Of a DNA stretch of 64,000 bases, positions 4,601-19,100 are shown one piece after another. The stretch's first letter is position 1, and each line of letters starts with the position of its first letter. The position numbers and the translations under genes are program-made. This DNA is from Escherichia coli (GTDB taxonomy: Bacteria > Pseudomonadota > Gammaproteobacteria > Enterobacterales > Enterobacteriaceae). The stretch lies in the NCBI RefSeq assembly GCF_044324875.1, contig NZ_CP172187.1, one strand, 5' to 3'. The notes under the pieces were generated by a model. It had not been told where the DNA came from. It saw only the letters and a list, made by a program, of their open reading frames with translations, and did no database searches.

Positions 4601-5872
4601 TCATAACTGGGCTACTGGCAAATCTGTCCATCTGGTGGTATACGCAGGAGAAAGCATTTCCCGTTTCATTTGCCATTCAGGGGCGGTTCCTCGCCCCGCA
4701 AACCACACTTTCCCTTTTCCAGACTGGTTCAGTTCATCGAGTGTTTTCATTAACTTTTCGCTGTTTTTACGGGGCTGGATCTCATCAAATAATCCCGGCT
4801 GCGCTATACCCGATGGTGTGAAATCAGCCAGCATGACTCCTGCCTTCATATAGCGGTACCCTTCACGCCAGACATGGTTTAAGGCTCTGCATGCGGCGGC
4901 AATAATGTCCCGGCTGTCCTGTGTGGGCAATGGAAGCTTTTCCACAGCGGCATTGCTGTAACAGGGTTCTTTTACTGCAAAGGGGGATGTCCGTACAAAT
5001 GTCGTCACCTGCCGGCAATACTGACGTTCCCCACGTAGTTTCTCTGCGGCCCGCTCTGCATACTGAACAACAGCCTGGTGCATGGCATCTTTGTCTGTGA
5101 TTCGTTCACCAAAACTGCGACTACAGACAATCTGCTGTTTTGCCGGTGGTGCTTCTTCCAGGGATATGCAGGACTCGCCGTTGAGTTCGCGTACCGTACG
5201 CTCAAGAATGACGCTGAAGTTTTTCCGGATGAATGCCGTGTTAGCCTGCGCCAGCTGCAGTGCTGTGTTAATACCCAGCGCATTCAGCTTTTCCGTCAGT
5301 CTGCGTCCTACTCCCCAGACCTCACCAACTGGCTGCAGCCCCAGTAGCTTCAAGGTCCGATTACGGTTTTCTGCCGTCAGCGCGACCACTCCGGAAAACT
5401 GTGGCCATTGCTTTGTTGCCCACTGTGCACTTTTAGCCAGCGTTTTTGTAGGCGCAATGCCCACCCCCATGGTGAGTCCTGTCCAGCTCTTTACCTGTTC
5501 CCTGAGCTGATGACCAAAAACCTCCGGAGAGATGCAATGATTTATCCCCCGCAAATCAATGAACATTTCATCAATTGAGTAGGGCTCAACTGCGGGAGAA
5601 AGCGACTCCAGAACAGCCATAACCCGTTGGCTCATGCTGTGGTACAGCGCATAATTGCTGGAAAATACATGTATTTTCTTCTCCAGGCGCATTTGTCTCA
5701 CCTGAAACCAGGGCTGCCCCATTCTGATGCCAAGGGCTTTTGCCTCCGGGCTGCGCGCGATCACACAGCCATCGTTATTGCTGAGTACGATGACCGGTTC
5801 GTTGCGAAGGTCCGGGCGGAAAACTTTTTCACATGAGGCGTAGAAACTGTTGATATCAGCCAGTGCAAACAT
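4601..5872 (-). CDS. impB: Y-family error-prone DNA polymerase subunit (UmuC/MucB/ImpB family)
   Basis: 423 aa starting MFALADINSFYASCEKVFRPDL, the conserved UmuC-family N-terminus; gene order small-DinI-like/UmuD-like/UmuC-like matches impCAB (symbol by synteny, from memory). Confidence 0.85.
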   Translation of the reverse strand: MFALADINSFYASCEKVFRPDLRNEPVIVLSNNDGCVIARSPEAKALGIRMGQPWFQVRQMRLEKKIHVFSSNYALYHSMSQRVMAVLESLSPAVEPYSIDEMFIDLRGINHCISPEVFGHQLREQVKSWTGLTMGVGIAPTKTLAKSAQWATKQWPQFSGVVALTAENRNRTLKLLGLQPVGEVWGVGRRLTEKLNALGINTALQLAQANTAFIRKNFSVILERTVRELNGESCISLEEAPPAKQQIVCSRSFGERITDKDAMHQAVVQYAERAAEKLRGERQYCRQVTTFVRTSPFAVKEPCYSNAAVEKLPLPTQDSRDIIAAACRALNHVWREGYRYMKAGVMLADFTPSGIAQPGLFDEIQPRKNSEKLMKTLDELNQSGKGKVWFAGRGTAPEWQMKREMLSPAYTTRWTDLPVAQL

Positions 5873-6593: not shown

Positions 6594-6862
6594 TATTCTA
6601 ATAACTGAATCCACACACAGTCAAATGTCATTATTGTGACTAAAAAACGCTCAATTCTCTGAGGGTGTGGCTGTATGCCTGCTGTGGACTGCTGTGTCCA
6701 GCTTATCCACAGCATTTTGCGCACGGTTCTGTGAATAAAATACCTGGTTACCCAGGCCGTGCCGGCACGTTAACCGGGCTGCATCCAATGCAAGTGTGTC
6801 GCTGTCGCCGGCATCCTCACCAGGTCACTCAGCAGTCAGGGAGAAAAATGGCGGATGAAGTA

Positions 6863-7221
6863 TGACGGAGACGGTCGGGCAAGTGCCCGTTTCTTTTCCG
6901 ACAAAGGATGTCGCCGTGCTCCTCTTTTTACTGCGCCGGCTGACGCGGCGCGGCATAAACGCTGCCTGTGGTCAGTGTCCCGCGTCCGGCGGGCACGGGA
7001 CGGGCGCTTTTACCGCTCCCGGCTGGCGTCGGTGACAGTGTACGCCAGCCCGTCGCCCTTTTCTGATGAACGCCCTTCAAGCCGCTTTCGCGGCATAGCC
7101 TTGCCGTCAAAAAGACGACGGCTGCGGTATTCCACGGTCGGCCTGACCCGTTACCGGACGCGGTGAACAGCCCACAGGCAGCGGGGAACGGGCACCACAG
7201 GGGGGCCCTCCCGGTGCTCCT
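6863..7221 (+). repeat. leading-region repeat family A, copy 1 (~360 bp, GC-rich, contains long imperfect inverted repeat arms 6954-6989 / 7154-7184)
   Basis: Near-identical to 8168-8526; ends at the RBS of the downstream gene. Confidence 0.85.
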
Positions 7222-7236
7222 GTGAGGAGAATTCCC

Positions 7237-8163
7237 ATGCCAAACTGGTGCTCAAATCGTATGTATTTTTCTGGTGAACCAGCACAGATCGCTGAGATTA
7301 AACGACTGGCCAGCGGTGCAGTCACACCGCTTTATCGCCGCGCCACAGATGAAGGTATTCAGCTGTTTCTGGCCGGTAGTGCCGGACTTCTGCAGACCAC
7401 TGAAGATGTGCGGTTTGAACCATGCCCCGGACTGACGGCTGCCGGACGTGGTGTTGTATCGCCGGAGAATATCGCGTTCACCCGCTGGCTGACACACCTG
7501 CAGAACGGTGTGCTACTGGATGAAAAAAACTGCCTGATGCTGCATGAACTCTGGCTGCAGAGTGGTACTGGCCAGCGTCGCTGGGAAGGATTACCGGATG
7601 AGGTCAGGGAAAGCATCACCGTGCATTTCACCGCCAAAAGAGGTAACTGGTGTGGCTTCTGGAGTAACGAGGATGTATCGGTGTGGTGGAACCGTCTGTG
7701 TGACAATGTACTGCCGGAAAAAACCATGCCGTTTGACCTGCTGACGGTTCTGCCCACCCGCCTGGATGTTGAAGTGAATGGCTTTAACGGTGGTGTTCTG
7801 AACGGTGTTCCTTCTGCGTATCACTGGTATACGGAACAGTATGGCGTGAAGTGGCCTGTGGGGTATGAGGTGAATATCAGCAGTCAGGGAGACAACTTCA
7901 TTCAGGTTGATTTCGACACGCCGTGGTGTCAGCCGGAAAGCGACGTTATTGCAGAATTAAGCCGCCGTTTCAGTTGCACACTGGAGCACTGGTATGCCGA
8001 GCAGGGCTGCAATTTCTGTGGCTGGCAGCGATATGAGCGTGGAGAGCTTGTTGATGTCCTGTGGGGGGAATTGGAATGGTCTTCCCCGACAGATGACGAT
8101 GAGCTGCCGGAAGTCACCGGACCTGCGTGGATTGTCGACAAGGTGGCGCATTACGGTGGATGA
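7237..8163 (+). CDS. hypothetical Cys-rich leading-region protein (family not assigned)
   Basis: 308 aa from ATG preceded by GAGGAG RBS (MPNWCSNRMYF...); multiple Cys/Trp-rich motifs incl. CNFCGW. Confidence 0.7.
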   Translation: MPNWCSNRMYFSGEPAQIAEIKRLASGAVTPLYRRATDEGIQLFLAGSAGLLQTTEDVRFEPCPGLTAAGRGVVSPENIAFTRWLTHLQNGVLLDEKNCLMLHELWLQSGTGQRRWEGLPDEVRESITVHFTAKRGNWCGFWSNEDVSVWWNRLCDNVLPEKTMPFDLLTVLPTRLDVEVNGFNGGVLNGVPSAYHWYTEQYGVKWPVGYEVNISSQGDNFIQVDFDTPWCQPESDVIAELSRRFSCTLEHWYAEQGCNFCGWQRYERGELVDVLWGELEWSSPTDDDELPEVTGPAWIVDKVAHYGG

Positions 8164-8167
8164 ATTC

Positions 8168-8526
8168 TGACGGAGACGGGCGGGCAACCGCCCGTTTCTT
8201 TTCCGACAAAGGATGTCGCCGTGCTCCTCTTTTTACTGCGCCGGCTGACGCGGCGCGGCATAAACGCTGCCTGTGGTCAGTGTCCCGCGTCCGGCGGGCA
8301 CGGGACGGGCGCTTTTACCGCTCCCGGCTGGCACCGGTGACAGTGTACGCCAGCCCGTCGCCCTTTTCTGATGAACGCCCTTCAAGCCGCTTTCGCGGCA
8401 TAGCCTTGCCGTCAAAAAGACGACGGCTGCGGTATTCCACGGTCGGCCTGACCCGTTACCGGACGCGGTGAACAGCCCACAGGCAGCGGGGAACGGGCAC
8501 CACAGGGGTGCCCTCCCGGTGCCTTC
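8168..8526 (+). repeat. leading-region repeat family A, copy 2
   Basis: Near-identical to 6863-7221; ends at RBS of the methyltransferase gene. Confidence 0.85.
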
Positions 8527-11986: not shown

Positions 11987-12178
11987 TACAGGGGCAGGCG
12001 GTGGAGGCCGCCTGTCAGCCCGCGCGAAAACCCCTGGCAGGCTGACGCCTGCCGGAAGGGAAGCGGGCCACGCTGGCGCGTCGCCCGTTACCCTTCCCGT
12101 CTGTGATGTGTCTGACTCAGGAGTGTTTCTTTCTTATGTTGCGGAACTGTTCCTGATGTTGTTGTTGTTCCTTTATCT

Positions 12179-12788
12179 GCTGCTCTGATTCTGACTACTG
12201 CAGTGTTGTTCTGTCTGCCGGGCGCACCTTCGGCTCCCGGCTGCCTGGCGGCATCCGGTCGTCAGGCCCGACTCCGACAGGCAGCTGCTGGCGCACCTGC
12301 CAGTCTCCGCCGAACCCGCTGGCGCGGCTTCGGGCTGCCGCTACGGTCCGATGCGTGAAAACCCCGGGCTTGCAGCGACCGTTCTGGTCGCGCCGCCTCT
12401 GTCGCGCCGTGGCCTGCGCTCCAGGCATCCCGGCAAAAAGACGCCGGGATGTAAGGCGCAACGCCGTTTCGCAAACCGCGCTTCACGTCGTTGCTGCGGG
12501 TCCCTGCTCATTGCCTGCCGGGTGCCACACACCCGTATGAGTCCCTGTCGCCGGGGGCATAGACAGCCACAACCTGCCGCACTGACTGTCCAGGGTAAAT
12601 GAACAGCCCACAAAATTTTTTACCCAAAACCCGGTAAAAAATTTTGCGTTCTGCCCAGGACAGGTGCGTCAGGCCGTGGCAGTGATGCCCCTTGCGGCGA
12701 AGGTTCTCAAACGGGTGAAGTTCATACCACAGGGAATACAGCAGCAGGTTCCCGCGAAACGTCAAAACCGCGGCTCCCGAAACTCAAC
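12179..12788 (+). repeat. leading-region repeat family B, copy 1 (~610 bp, GC-rich, internal palindromes); Frpo/ssi-like
   Basis: Three near-identical direct copies (12179-12788, 15536-16167, 23600-24229); contains hairpins such as CATCCCGGC-AAAAAGAC-GCCGGGATG. Confidence 0.85.
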
Positions 12789-13027
12789 GGGTGATGTTCT
12801 TTAAAAATCAGGATTTATTTCAGGCTCCGGCAATACGCATTTATGTGTTCTGTCAGTCATCCGGCTGGCAGGTAATGAGAACGCAGGAACAGAAGGAGGA
12901 AAACACCGGAGAACGTCAGACGCAGATATGAAAAAAGCAGGCCGGGGAGGACCTGCTTAATCCACACCGCAAAAACTGTTCGAGCAGTTTCTGCGGTTCC
13001 ATTCAACAGTCATAAGGAGTTTCATTT

Positions 13028-13258
13028 ATGACGGTAAGTATTGTTTCACCTTCCGCAGCGGCTGTAAAGCCCCGCCGTCATCCCCGTTTCAGACGCGAAG
13101 ACATCCCCGCGCCGGAAATTGACCCCGTGCTGAAAGCCTTCGGGCGACACATAGCCCGGAGTTTTCACCGGGGGCGTGGTGTACACATCCCCGCCATGAA
13201 AAACACGGCCTTCGGGCAGGTGCTCCGCACACTCGAACTGAAACGCGCTTTTAACTGA
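13028..13258 (+). CDS. hypothetical basic small protein (76 aa)
   Basis: AAGGAG RBS; first ORF after repeat B1. Confidence 0.45.
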   Translation: MTVSIVSPSAAAVKPRRHPRFRREDIPAPEIDPVLKAFGRHIARSFHRGRGVHIPAMKNTAFGQVLRTLELKRAFN

Positions 13259-15281: not shown

Positions 15282-15460
15282 TGACACAGGGCTGGCGGGA
15301 GGATAAATGCCCGTCTGTCCGCGCCGGGAAAAGACCGCGCGCCGGTGGCGCTGAAAGGGGCCGCGCTCACGCGCCGCCCCTTTCATTACGCGGACGTTCT
15401 GATGGGGGCTTCTGTCTTTTCAGACCTGTCATTTGTCTGTTACTGATGATGTTGTTGTTC

Positions 15461-15525
15461 CTGCTACTGCTACTGCTACTGCTACTGCTACTGCTACTGC
15501 TACTGCTACTGCTACTGCTACTGCT
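15461..15525. repeat. hexanucleotide tandem repeat (CTGCTA)n, ~11 copies
   Basis: Read directly; absent at the equivalent position of repeat copies B1 and B3. Confidence 0.9.
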
Positions 15526-15535
15526 CTTCTTTTTC

Positions 15536-16167
15536 CTGCTGCTCTGATTCTGACTACTGCAGTGTTGTTCTGTCTGCCGGGCGCACCTTCGGCTCCCGGC
15601 TGCCTGGCGGCATCCGGTCGTCAGGCCCGACTCCGACAGGCAGCTGCTGGCGCACCTGCCAGTCTCCGCCGAACCCGCTGGCGCGGTTTCGGGCTGCCGC
15701 TACGGTCCGATGCGTGAAAACCCGGCTTGCAGCGACCGTTCCGGTCGCGCCGCCCCTGTCGCGCCGTGACCTGCGCTCCAGGCATCCCGGCAAAAAGACG
15801 CCGGGATGTAAGGCGCAACGCCGTTTCGCAAACCGCGCTTCACGTCGTTGCGGCGGGTCCCTGCCCGTTGTTGTGTCCGGTGCCATTCACCTGTTTAAGC
15901 CCCTGTCGCCGGGGGCTGATACAGCCACAACCTGCCGCACTGACTGTCCAGGGTAAATGAACAGCCCACAAAATTTTTTACCCAAAACCCGGTAAAAAAT
16001 TTTGCGTTCTGCCCAGGACAGGTGCGTCAGGCCGTGGCAGTGATGCCCCATGCGGCGAAGGTTCTCAAACAGGTGATGGTGAATACCGGAGGGAACAAAG
16101 AGCAGGTCCCCGCAAAACGTCAAAACCGCGGCTCCCGAAACTCAACAGATGATGGGGGCTGAAAACA
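15536..16167 (+). repeat. leading-region repeat family B, copy 2 (immediately upstream of ssb)
   Basis: Near-identical to copies at 12179 and 23600. Confidence 0.85.
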
Positions 16168-16187
16168 TCAACAGAAGGAGACACATC

Positions 16188-19100
16188 ATGGCAGTTCGTG
16201 GCATTAACAAGGTCATTCTTGTCGGTGTGCGCCGTTGAAGCGCGGTGTTTTATGGAGTGTTGCCTGAAAAGCAACATGGCTTAGTGGTATAGCCATTGCA
16301 TACTGTGGTTAGCCTTGCTTGGTAACAGGCTCGGAGATCCTGAAAAGGAGAGGTGAACATAGCATCCACAGAAAAGGGTGGTGAATATGGAAATCGTTAT
16401 AAGTATCACCATTCAATGCAAGATGTATATGGATAAACTGGGTTTGTTGAAGTCGAGATCTATGTGGGAAACAGGAAACCAATAACGCAGAACGATTGAA
16501 GCGTTATTCCCGTACTAGCACAAGAAATCCGTCCGACGTTGATTGTGACCACTCTAACGGGCCAGCTATTGATGAAATAGTTAAACGATCGAAAGACATC
16601 CTAAGTACATCGCATCTCCACACCGTGAAACTACGGGACTACCTAAACTGGATTTATACCCAGCATGGTAGCGGAGTCTCCATAGTACTCAAGGTCGGCC
16701 TGTAATGGGTTCCGGCAGTCCGCATTATACGGAAGCAGCAAAGGTATAAATCAACCGGAAGGAAGATGAAAGCCTCACAGTGCTGCGGGGAAGGGAGACA
16801 GTTGTTAGATACATCAATCTCTAAGAGGAGGGTTAGCCAATGCTGCCTGATGAACTTGAGAAAAGATTAGATGGAATTGAGGATGCTTCAAAAAAAGGGT
16901 ATCCAGTACGTAATCTATACAAAATTGCGTGTGAGCCCGGACTGTGGCTGCAAGCCTACGTGAATATACGGGCCAATGCAGGTGCACTGACTCAAGGTGT
17001 ATCAACAGATACCATTGATGGCTTTTCTATCGAAAGAGCAGAGAAGCTGGCAAAAACATTGCGGAGTAGAGAATACGTAGCGAAACCTGTACGCAGAGTT
17101 CAGATCCCAAAAAAGGACGGAAAAACCAGACCGCTGGGGATTCCAGGTGGAGACGATAAACTGGCGCAAGAAGTAGCAAGAATTATTCTGGAAAGGGTTT
17201 ATGAACCAGTATTCTCTGAACACTCTCATGGATTCAGACCAAAACGTTCGTGTGAAACTGCGCTCAGATCTATTCGTCCAGTCTGGAACGGAGTTAAATG
17301 GATCGTGGATGTTGATATCAAAGGTTTCTTTGACAATATCCCCCACAAACTATTGCTGAATACACTGGCAGAGAAAATTAAGGATAAGAATTTCCTGAAA
17401 TTAATCGAACAGTGGCTGAAGGCAGGATATGTGGACAATTGGAAATACCATCGCTCATATTCTGGCACGCCACAAGGTGGGATAATTTCTCCCTTACTGG
17501 CAAATATATACCTCGACAAACTGGACCGTTTTGTAGAACAGAATTTAATTCCTGCATATACAAGCGGTACAAAACGAAGAGCGAATCCAGATATGAACAG
17601 GCTGGCCCATAAGATTCATAAACTACGAAAGAAAGTAGACGGTATGGCAACTGATTCTGAATCAGAAAAAGAAGCCATAAAGAAAGAAATTGAACGACTG
17701 CTTGAAGAAAAACGTTCTATACCATCTCAGGTCATGAACGATCCAAACTTCAGGCGTATGTACTATGTTCGATATGCTGATGACTTCGTAATCGGTGTCA
17801 TCGGCTCGAAGAAAGATGCTGAACATATATCAAGACAGGTCAGAAACTTTATTACTACTTCACTGGGATTGGAAGTTAATGAAGCAAAGACCAGGATCCG
17901 CCATATCTCAGAAGGAGTTAATTTTTTAGGCTATGAAATCAGACAGGCAGATGCAAAGAAATTGCTGAAGCAGAAAATGCAAGGGCGGCACGCTCTCCGG
18001 AGATCCACCACAGGAATTGTGCAGCTCTTCGTTCCTGACAATATAGCCGCTAAATTTTGTCACCAAAAGAAATATGGCTGTTATGAGAATGTGAAGGCTG
18101 TACATCGTTCAAGTCTACAAAATCTCAGTGAAGCTGAAATTGTTCTGACTTTCAACGCGGAAATGCGCGGATTGGCGAACTACTACAGTCTGGCGCTGGA
18201 CATGAAATATAAATTATCAAAATTATATTTCATATGGCAAATAAGCCTTTTTAAGACCCTGGCGAATAAACGACGTAGTTCAGTGAATAAAGTCGCCAAA
18301 TCGCTACGGCAAAATAATGGAGATCTGGCTATTACCGTTCAGGCCAAAAATGGATCCCGAAAGATTGAGGTTTTCAAACTCAAACATGTCAATCGCAACC
18401 GAACAACGATTGTCGATACGGAACCGAGAACCGCACATATCACAACCCGCACAACAGAGATCATGCGTCGATTAGGGGCAAGGATCTGCGAGTATTGTGC
18501 GAAGACTGGGCGCTGCGAAGTACATCATGTCAGAAAGCTAAAAGACCTGAAGAAAGGTCGTAAGGCCGGATATAAACCCAGCTTGTGGCAACTAATGATG
18601 ATCGCACGCCGCCGGAAAACGATGATTTTGTGCGCAAGTTGCCACGACAAGTTACATAGCGGAAAACTACCCGATTTGAGACAGGAAAAGGGAAGAATAC
18701 TCCTGCAACCACCTGTCTCAAGCGGGGATTCTGCTAAATGAGTTTATCCCCAATAAGCTAGCAATGGAGAGCCGTATGCACTGAAAGGTGCACGTACGGT
18801 TCGGAGGGGGGGTAACGGTGATCTAACTCAAGATAAGCAGGACATATTCGCCATTTATCTTGAAAGACCACACGTACCCTACCCTACCGTCTGGGAAAAG
18901 ATCCGGAAGTCCGTTACATCCCAAACGGGGGCGCAGTGGCAAACCTGCAGGTGGCCACGTCAGAAAGCTGGCGCGACAAACAGACGGGGGAGATACGGGA
19001 GCAGACAGAATGGCATCGCGTGGTGCTGTTCGGCAAGCTCGCGGAAGTGGCTGGTGAGTATCTGCGCAAGGGCGCGCAGGTCTACATCGAAGGTCAGCTT

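Follow-up and report, generated by a model that had tools for sequence, protein, structure and literature searches.

Which promoter serves ssb in the leading region of a conjugative plasmid, and what does it express when ssb itself is split by an intron? This question is raised by a locus in the 64,000-nucleotide stretch of Escherichia coli DNA analysed here (the window), in which a long repeat ends directly in front of an interrupted ssb gene. The window represents an IncF plasmid of the pEK499/pEC958 type, and a 4.1-kb query around the locus matched hundreds of E. coli plasmids at 99% identity or more.

The repeat upstream of ssb and its relation to F Frpo2

A repeat search followed by alignment detected three direct repeats of ~631 bp with mutual identities of 93-98%, all assigned to the minus strand. 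Global identity amounted to 98.3% for copies 2 and 3, 92.9% for copies 1 and 2 and 92.7% for copies 1 and 3, values that exclude chance as the origin of the repeat. Copy 1 (12177-12808) lies upstream of a 76-aa ORF, a DUF3560 gene and a methyltransferase gene. Copy 2 (631 bp, 15536-16166), the active form of which would be the transferred (minus) strand, is located upstream of ssb, and copy 3 (23598-24229), the equivalent of F Frpo1, precedes a 95-aa ORF (ATG at 24250) that is followed by a DUF932 gene. A sequence-only reading had placed copy 2 at 15536-16167, 20 bp before the ssb start codon and next to its ribosome-binding site. Alignment bore this out to within 1 nt: the shared sequence terminates at ...GGGGCTGAAAAC (16166), ATCAACAGAAGGAGACACATC comes next with the ribosome-binding site AGGAGA (16176-16181, plus strand), and the ATG follows at 16188, leaving a gap of 20-21 nt. 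Copy 3 is laid out alike, with 20 nt containing GAGGAGA before its ATG. In PLSDB, a 221-nt core query detected the repeat family at no fewer than 16,815 places in at least 5000 records, with ~3.4 copies each.

Several other features were noted around the repeats. The left half of copy 2 (15536-15805, minus strand) lies outside the Frpo core and is predicted to form several short G+C-rich hairpins (z -4.0). These left 270 bp are conserved in all three copies (97% over 202 nt between copies 1 and 2), though they are not part of the Frpo/ssiD core, and might contain priming or terminator elements. Directly to the left of copy 2, at 15461-15525, there is a perfect (CTGCTA) x 10.8 microsatellite, which copies 1 and 3 lack. 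Alignments of near-identical plasmids break into two pieces here and cover shorter spans, pointing to a tract of variable length. Between copy 1 and the 76-aa ORF heading the DUF3560/methyltransferase operon, Rfam reports an AS-pc01 antisense RNA ('antisense to pHK01_035', 89.7 bits) on the minus strand at 12932-13033. A second family of direct repeats, situated deeper in the leading region, consists of two 300-nt copies (6850-7149 and 8155-8454) that are 97% identical and 1305 bp apart. They may be class-2 ssDNA promoters in the sense of Wen et al.; folding of a slice of this family gave a weak signal (z -2.5).

The direction of transfer can be read from oriT. The F-type nic-site motif GTGTGGTGCTTTT occurs a single time in the window, at 26366-26378 of the minus strand. 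The SLT transglycosylase gene lies on one side of it, and traM, which comes next on the other side, traJ and FinP lie to its right (traJ 5' UTR and FinP at 27181-27290, Rfam). The location of the motif on the minus strand identifies the latter as the transferred strand and hence as the template for the leading genes on the plus strand (ssb, DUF905, the parB-like gene and psiB). As judged from the motif, the transferred strand enters the recipient 5'-first, towards lower coordinates. Copy 2 is therefore situated in the leading region on a strand that, when transferred, serves as template for the genes downstream, as in the Frpo/ssi class.

For sequence comparison, the supplement of Samuel et al. 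2024 provided the reference Frpo/ssiD sequences, to which the F plasmid was added. Positions 15809-16158 of copy 2 are 88.2% identical to ssiD/Frpo1 over 346 aligned nt, and for positions 15713-16225, 511 aligned bases give 93.8% identity with the sequence preceding F ssb. The closest relation was found for 15901-16190, which is 97.6% identical to the 291-nt Frpo-to-ATG fragment of Samuel et al. 2024, itself a 100% match to F Frpo2. The last 36 nt up to the ssb ATG, comprising the junction of repeat end, ribosome-binding site and start codon, are the same in both. Copy 2 also resembles F Frpo2, for which the name ssp1b is in use too, in lying between the methylase-side operon and ssb, on the same strand relative to oriT, with overall identities of 94-98% and with the same downstream operon (ssb, DUF905, parB-like, psiB, psiA, hok/sok; sok at 22997-23173, Rfam). 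There are two differences. The ssb allele is of another group and is interrupted after codon 13 by a group II intron of 2661 nt, and a third class-1 copy (copy 1) is present upstream, whereas only two Frpo copies have been described for F. By homology, copy 2 is thus the ortholog of Frpo2, copy 3 that of Frpo1, and copy 1 an additional class-1 copy.

In the F plasmid, Frpo2 resides upstream of ssb and Frpo1 upstream of ygeA/ygeB (PMC9849209). Deletion of either element abolishes early expression of downstream genes in transconjugants (Couturier et al. 2023, PMC9849209), and in the case of Frpo2 early expression of Ssb(-sfGFP) and YfjA is lost (PMC9849209). The 291-nt fragment, fused at the ssb ATG to an anti-CRISPR gene, is a working ssDNA promoter (Samuel et al. 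2024). An anti-CRISPR gene driven by Frpo from the T-strand leading region improved conjugation into Cas9-targeting recipients ~225-fold and was effective only from that location (PMC11541004). Wen et al. 2025 classify Frpo/ssi elements as class-1 ssDNA promoters and mapped starts in pESBL by 5' RACE (PMC12672017). We take the promoter activity of copy 2 from these published experiments on its F ortholog, to which the demonstration of ssDNA-only, early and transient (zygotic) expression also belongs. The proposal that the arrangement matches that of Frpo-driven ssb is upheld by homology, by strand and by the hairpin fold described below. Taken together, we regard it as very probable that copy 2 is the Frpo2 of this IncF plasmid, a class-1 ssDNA promoter serving an intron-split ssb operon.

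One further gene of this operon deviates from F. The parB-like leading gene (19729-21686), a 652-aa ORF in F, is represented here by ORFs of 232 and 426 aa owing to a 1-nt deletion relative to F around 20375. The split reflects either a frameshift pseudogene or a sequencing error.

The group II intron in ssb

The interruption of ssb that had been recognized from the sequence is real and in sense orientation. Exon 1 (13 codons) occupies 16188-16226, the intron 16227-18887 and exon 2 18888-19376, all on the plus strand. Rfam model RF00029 (group II intron domain V/VI) matched at 18767-18887 with 67.4 bits (gathering score 40), ending exactly at the last intron base, and the intron ends, GTGCG (16227) and ...CTAC (18887), conform to the 5' GUGYG / 3' AY rule. 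Within the intron, an intact ORF for a protein of 633 aa (16840-18741, plus strand) is preceded by a ribosome-binding site of its own, AAGAGGAGGG (16824-16833). The protein contains reverse transcriptase (RVT_1), maturase (Intron_maturas2) and AI2M-like HNH endonuclease domains according to Pfam and matches LtrA (5g2x) over its full length (E 5.5e-119). Removal of the intron in silico gave a 175-aa SSB that aligns colinearly with F SSB and includes the complete Pfam SSB domain (E 2.3e-37), and the spliced junction, GTCGGT|CGTCTG, is matched at 100% identity by an intron-less allele that occurs naturally in NC_004998.

The intron corresponds to that of pEC958, which was named E.c.I11 by Phan et al. 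2015 (PMC4398462). With 99.3% identity over 2661 nt and insertion in the same ssb site, the element of pEC958/pEK499 is this very intron, without substantial difference. The lactococcal Ll.LtrB intron offers a further parallel: it too is an LtrA-type intron with reverse transcriptase, maturase and HNH domains, inserted in sense orientation in a conjugation-related gene. Ll.LtrB resides in the relaxase gene ltrB of the conjugative element pRS01, and the function of its host gene depends on splicing. In contrast, the host gene here is the leading-region ssb, the first gene after an ssDNA promoter.

We detected the intron in 514 PLSDB records, almost always once per record, and 494 of the 514 copies are at least 99% identical. 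The Frpo/exon-1/intron junction is present in at least 313 PLSDB records and the empty site in at least 3945. The intron-bearing allele accounts for ~7% of the matched IncF/IncI plasmids, the ST131 plasmids pEK499 and pEC958 among them. The same ssb site is occupied in an IncI-gamma/K1 plasmid, where the intron is truncated by ISCro1. In an evolution experiment, a putative group II intron of an IncF plasmid, which that report does not identify as E.c.I11, appeared in the leading region of an ESBL plasmid (PMC10104558). We asked whether pHN7A8 offers another example of an intron directly following an Frpo copy. This was rejected, since the group II intron of pHN7A8 differs from E.c.I11 (2343 bp) and is encoded on the opposite strand. 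In pHN7A8 this other intron (noted at 26531-28198) lies in the leading region just upstream of the copy-1 equivalent, and ssb is intact. Among 25 matches to the 4.1-kb query, automatic annotation was seen to call exon 2 alone 'ssb', with a non-ATG start (for example at 4997-5482 of one record), and to leave exon 1 unannotated. Intron-bearing plasmids are consequently recorded with a truncated but apparently intact ssb.

Insertion after codon 13 has the consequence that SSB can be made only after splicing. In the unspliced transcript, exon 1 runs into a stop after three intron codons, giving a 16-aa peptide. Splicing efficiency is uncertain given the pairing of the intron with exon 1: candidate EBS1 TCCGACG (16532-16538) pairs with exon positions -7 to -2 and has a mismatch at -1, and candidate EBS2 AGAACG reaches a 5/6 match, the two being placed at LtrB-like spacing. 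The intron might then splice poorly or not at all, so that copy 2 would drive nothing but the 16-aa peptide, the intron protein and the downstream genes, with the plasmid SSB being dispensable. The mismatch at -1 and the early stop fit this reading, and deletion of ssbF or of Frpo2 left the transfer frequency of F unaffected in standard matings (PMC9849209). From the latter result the insertion in ssb is probably well tolerated, whether splicing is efficient or not. On the other hand, domain V/VI is intact, the intron ends are canonical and the LtrA-like protein is of full length with its own ribosome-binding site. Moreover, the ssb site is occupied in both IncF and IncI backbones, and this, together with the near-identity of most plasmid copies, argues for an active, recently spreading retroelement. 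Since retrohoming requires a catalytically competent intron RNA, this spread counts against an intron that does not splice, and we consider the loss of ssb function through failed splicing unlikely.

The predicted hairpin of the transferred strand and the probable position of the promoter

We then considered how copy 2, as the Frpo2 ortholog, would act as a promoter on single-stranded DNA. The minus strand of 15806-16170, treated as ssDNA, was predicted to fold into a single long imperfect hairpin of ~320 nt in which ~16141 pairs with ~15823. The free energy of -107 kcal/mol compares with -60 ± 4 kcal/mol for shuffled sequences (z -10.6), none of 100 shuffles being as stable. The plus strand folds ~9 kcal/mol more weakly (-97.9 kcal/mol, z -7.7). 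The long and stable imperfect stem-loop typical of the Frpo/ssi class is thus predicted for the core at 15823-16141 (minus strand), which is homologous to F ssiD/Frpo1 (88%) and to F Frpo2. Its tip (15974-15999, minus strand) is a perfectly paired A/T-rich stem of 16 bp, CAAAATTTTTTACC / GGTAAAAAATTTTG, with an 8-nt loop, and is conserved in IncF and IncI homologs. An 8-nt bulge, TTCATTTA, is found close by on the 3' arm. Comparison of 11 IncF, IncI, Serratia and Salmonella homologs showed that 12 of the 34 consensus pairs are kept via changes on both sides.

F ssiD/Frpo1 (Masai and Arai 1997) has the homologous hairpin, and ssi1-3 of ColIb-P9 (Bates 1999; Nasim 2004) share the A/T-rich tip, the GTCCGGGG/CCCCTGGAC stem and the CAT-containing bulge. 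As in the window, such elements are dispersed in ~3 copies, each in front of a leading-region operon. The IncI ssi elements differ in that they have only the ~100-nt tip region in common with the F type, the F-type candidate -35 TTGAGA being replaced by TGGACC.

When both strands of the 15300-16300 duplex were scanned strictly for the sigma-70 consensus, nothing reached 9/12, which fits a promoter that is silent in dsDNA and made looser scans necessary. At a threshold of 8/12, matches in the five IncF copies scanned occurred exclusively on the T-strand and none on its complement. The only T-strand match common to all five was TTGAGA-17-CATCAC, a weak one (8/12). We infer from it the best candidate for the promoter hexamers, both on the minus strand: a -35 TTGAGA at 16063-16068 on the 5' arm, predicted to pair with 15895-15899, and, after a 17-nt spacer, a -10 CATCAC at 16040-16045, the central ATC of which would be unpaired in an internal loop. 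The original papers reportedly mention mismatches at the -10. TTTGAGA and the spacer following it do not vary among 13 F-like homologs. Among these are Serratia and insect-metagenome sequences with an expanded or deleted A/T tip. For this promoter, the start is predicted opposite ~15929 on the template arm, with transcription reading through the tip and a leader of ~260 nt.

The alternative candidate, TGGGTA-17-TTCATT (minus strand), has its -10 in the bulge TTCATTTA at 15954-15961 on the 3' arm and would start at ~16015-16022. It recurs positionally in F ssiD, ColIb ssi2 and Salmonella sequences. The TTGAGA/CATCAC hexamers are poorly conserved in IncI ssi sequences. TTGAGA has no predicted pairing partner in the truncated functional construct used by Samuel et al., which counts for the candidate at tip and bulge; either a pre-melted template can do without the -35 duplex, or the real promoter lies near the tip. 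With either assignment of hexamers the transcript is predicted to be plus-sense. Both also put the promoter core ~120-290 bp upstream of the ssb ATG rather than at the repeat end; the right-hand ~130-260 nt would not be promoter but would be transcribed as a shared leader.

Two further possibilities for the hexamers were discarded. The A/T tip as UP element combined with TTGTGG as -35 was rejected because the spacing to any -10-like hexamer varies between copies (15 nt in the window and in F Frpo2, 16-17 nt in F ssiD and ColIb). TTGACG at 16118-16123 was rejected as a -35 since the position of the -10 is not conserved and the pairing partner is absent from the functional construct. We also noted a discrepancy in the reference sequence: GenBank entry D90178 (ssiD) has GGGGCATACTGCC, while the F plasmid (11727-11945) and all other E. 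coli and Salmonella copies have GGGGCATCACTGCC. The better-looking -10 of ssiD (CATACT) may, in view of this difference, be a sequencing error in the 1990 entry.

The same hairpin could primarily be a single-strand initiation (ssi) site, at which RNA polymerase makes short primer RNAs from which the complementary strand is started, ssb expression being a by-product. It was in this capacity that Frpo/ssiD was first defined in vitro (PMC7690428), and a 2026 preprint provides in vivo evidence that ssp1/Frpo transcripts prime the conversion. Priming and promoter roles do not exclude each other, however. Early expression of Ssb and YfjA depends on Frpo2 in F (PMC9849209), and the ends of copies 2 and 3, both ~20 nt before a ribosome-binding site and an ATG, fit an mRNA leader. 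Copy 2 acting mainly in priming therefore appears improbable. That recombination or duplication left the repeats behind as passive remnants, or that they are a conventional duplex promoter, in either case without any single-strand role, can hardly be maintained: dispersed repeats of 93-98% identity are indeed recombination substrates, as suggested for IncI plasmids (PMC3817090), but the family's several copies per plasmid in thousands of records, the compensatory changes in the hairpin, the strand-biased fold, the restriction of promoter-like matches in IncF copies to the T-strand, the empty scan for a consensus duplex promoter and the direct experiments on the F ortholog (PMC9849209, PMC11541004) all speak against it.

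Proposed course of events after plasmid entry

With copy 2 as Frpo2, the following sequence of events can be proposed, in which hexamers, start site, splicing and timing are inferred. The minus strand would enter the recipient 5'-first from the nick at ~26370, and on arrival the segment 16141-15823 would fold back on itself into the long imperfect hairpin. Host sigma-70 RNA polymerase would take this hairpin for a promoter, most plausibly through the putative TTGAGA and CATCAC hexamers on the 5' arm, the latter partly unpaired. Transcription would proceed rightwards on the transferred strand as template, through a leader of 170-260 nt formed by the right part of the repeat, and the transcript would then cross the AGGAGA ribosome-binding site into ssb exon 1, the intron, exon 2, DUF905, the parB-like gene, psiB and psiA. 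Synthesis of the complementary strand would flatten the hairpin and switch the promoter off. The same early transcript would carry the intron RNA together with the mRNA of its reverse transcriptase/maturase.

The genes downstream of ssb have their own start sites but are moved 2.66 kb further from the promoter. As bacterial transcription elongates at an estimated ~40-50 nt/s, the extra length would add ~1 min. The interval before conversion to dsDNA lasts a few minutes (PMC9849209 and the 2026 preprint).

E.c.I11 is inserted 39 nt downstream of the ssb start codon, in the first gene after Frpo2, and no promoter-like site was found inside the intron upstream of its ORF. From this position a burst of intron RNA and protein at plasmid entry would be expected. 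We therefore suggest, tentatively and as one possibility, that E.c.I11 exploits the ssDNA promoter to produce its RNA and its reverse transcriptase/maturase upon entry into a new cell. If this were true, the burst would coincide with the first access to intron-less ssb targets on resident plasmids and would amount to a 'zygotic induction' of a retroelement, and SSB and PsiB would be delayed by the time required to transcribe and splice 2.66 kb. In a literature search, we found no link between group II introns and zygotic induction, ssDNA promoters or the leading region. In the papers covered by that search E.c.I11 is merely listed as a mobile element, and its position in ssb and relation to Frpo are not described.

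Much of what is found at this locus is already known. Frpo2 upstream of ssb is published, and the intron, already catalogued, carries an annotation in hundreds of records. The finding thus amounts to the correct recognition of known elements and is largely ordinary, the intron in ssb being its only twist. Frpo-type promoters account for the expression of anti-SOS and anti-defence genes by conjugative resistance plasmids that are not yet double-stranded, and recognition of Frpo is for this reason of help in the annotation of leading regions. What the intron adds is a common natural allele in which the first gene of the early operon requires RNA splicing. This allele may serve as a natural experiment on the splicing of a transcript derived from ssDNA, on delay of the early programme and on intron mobility coupled to conjugation.
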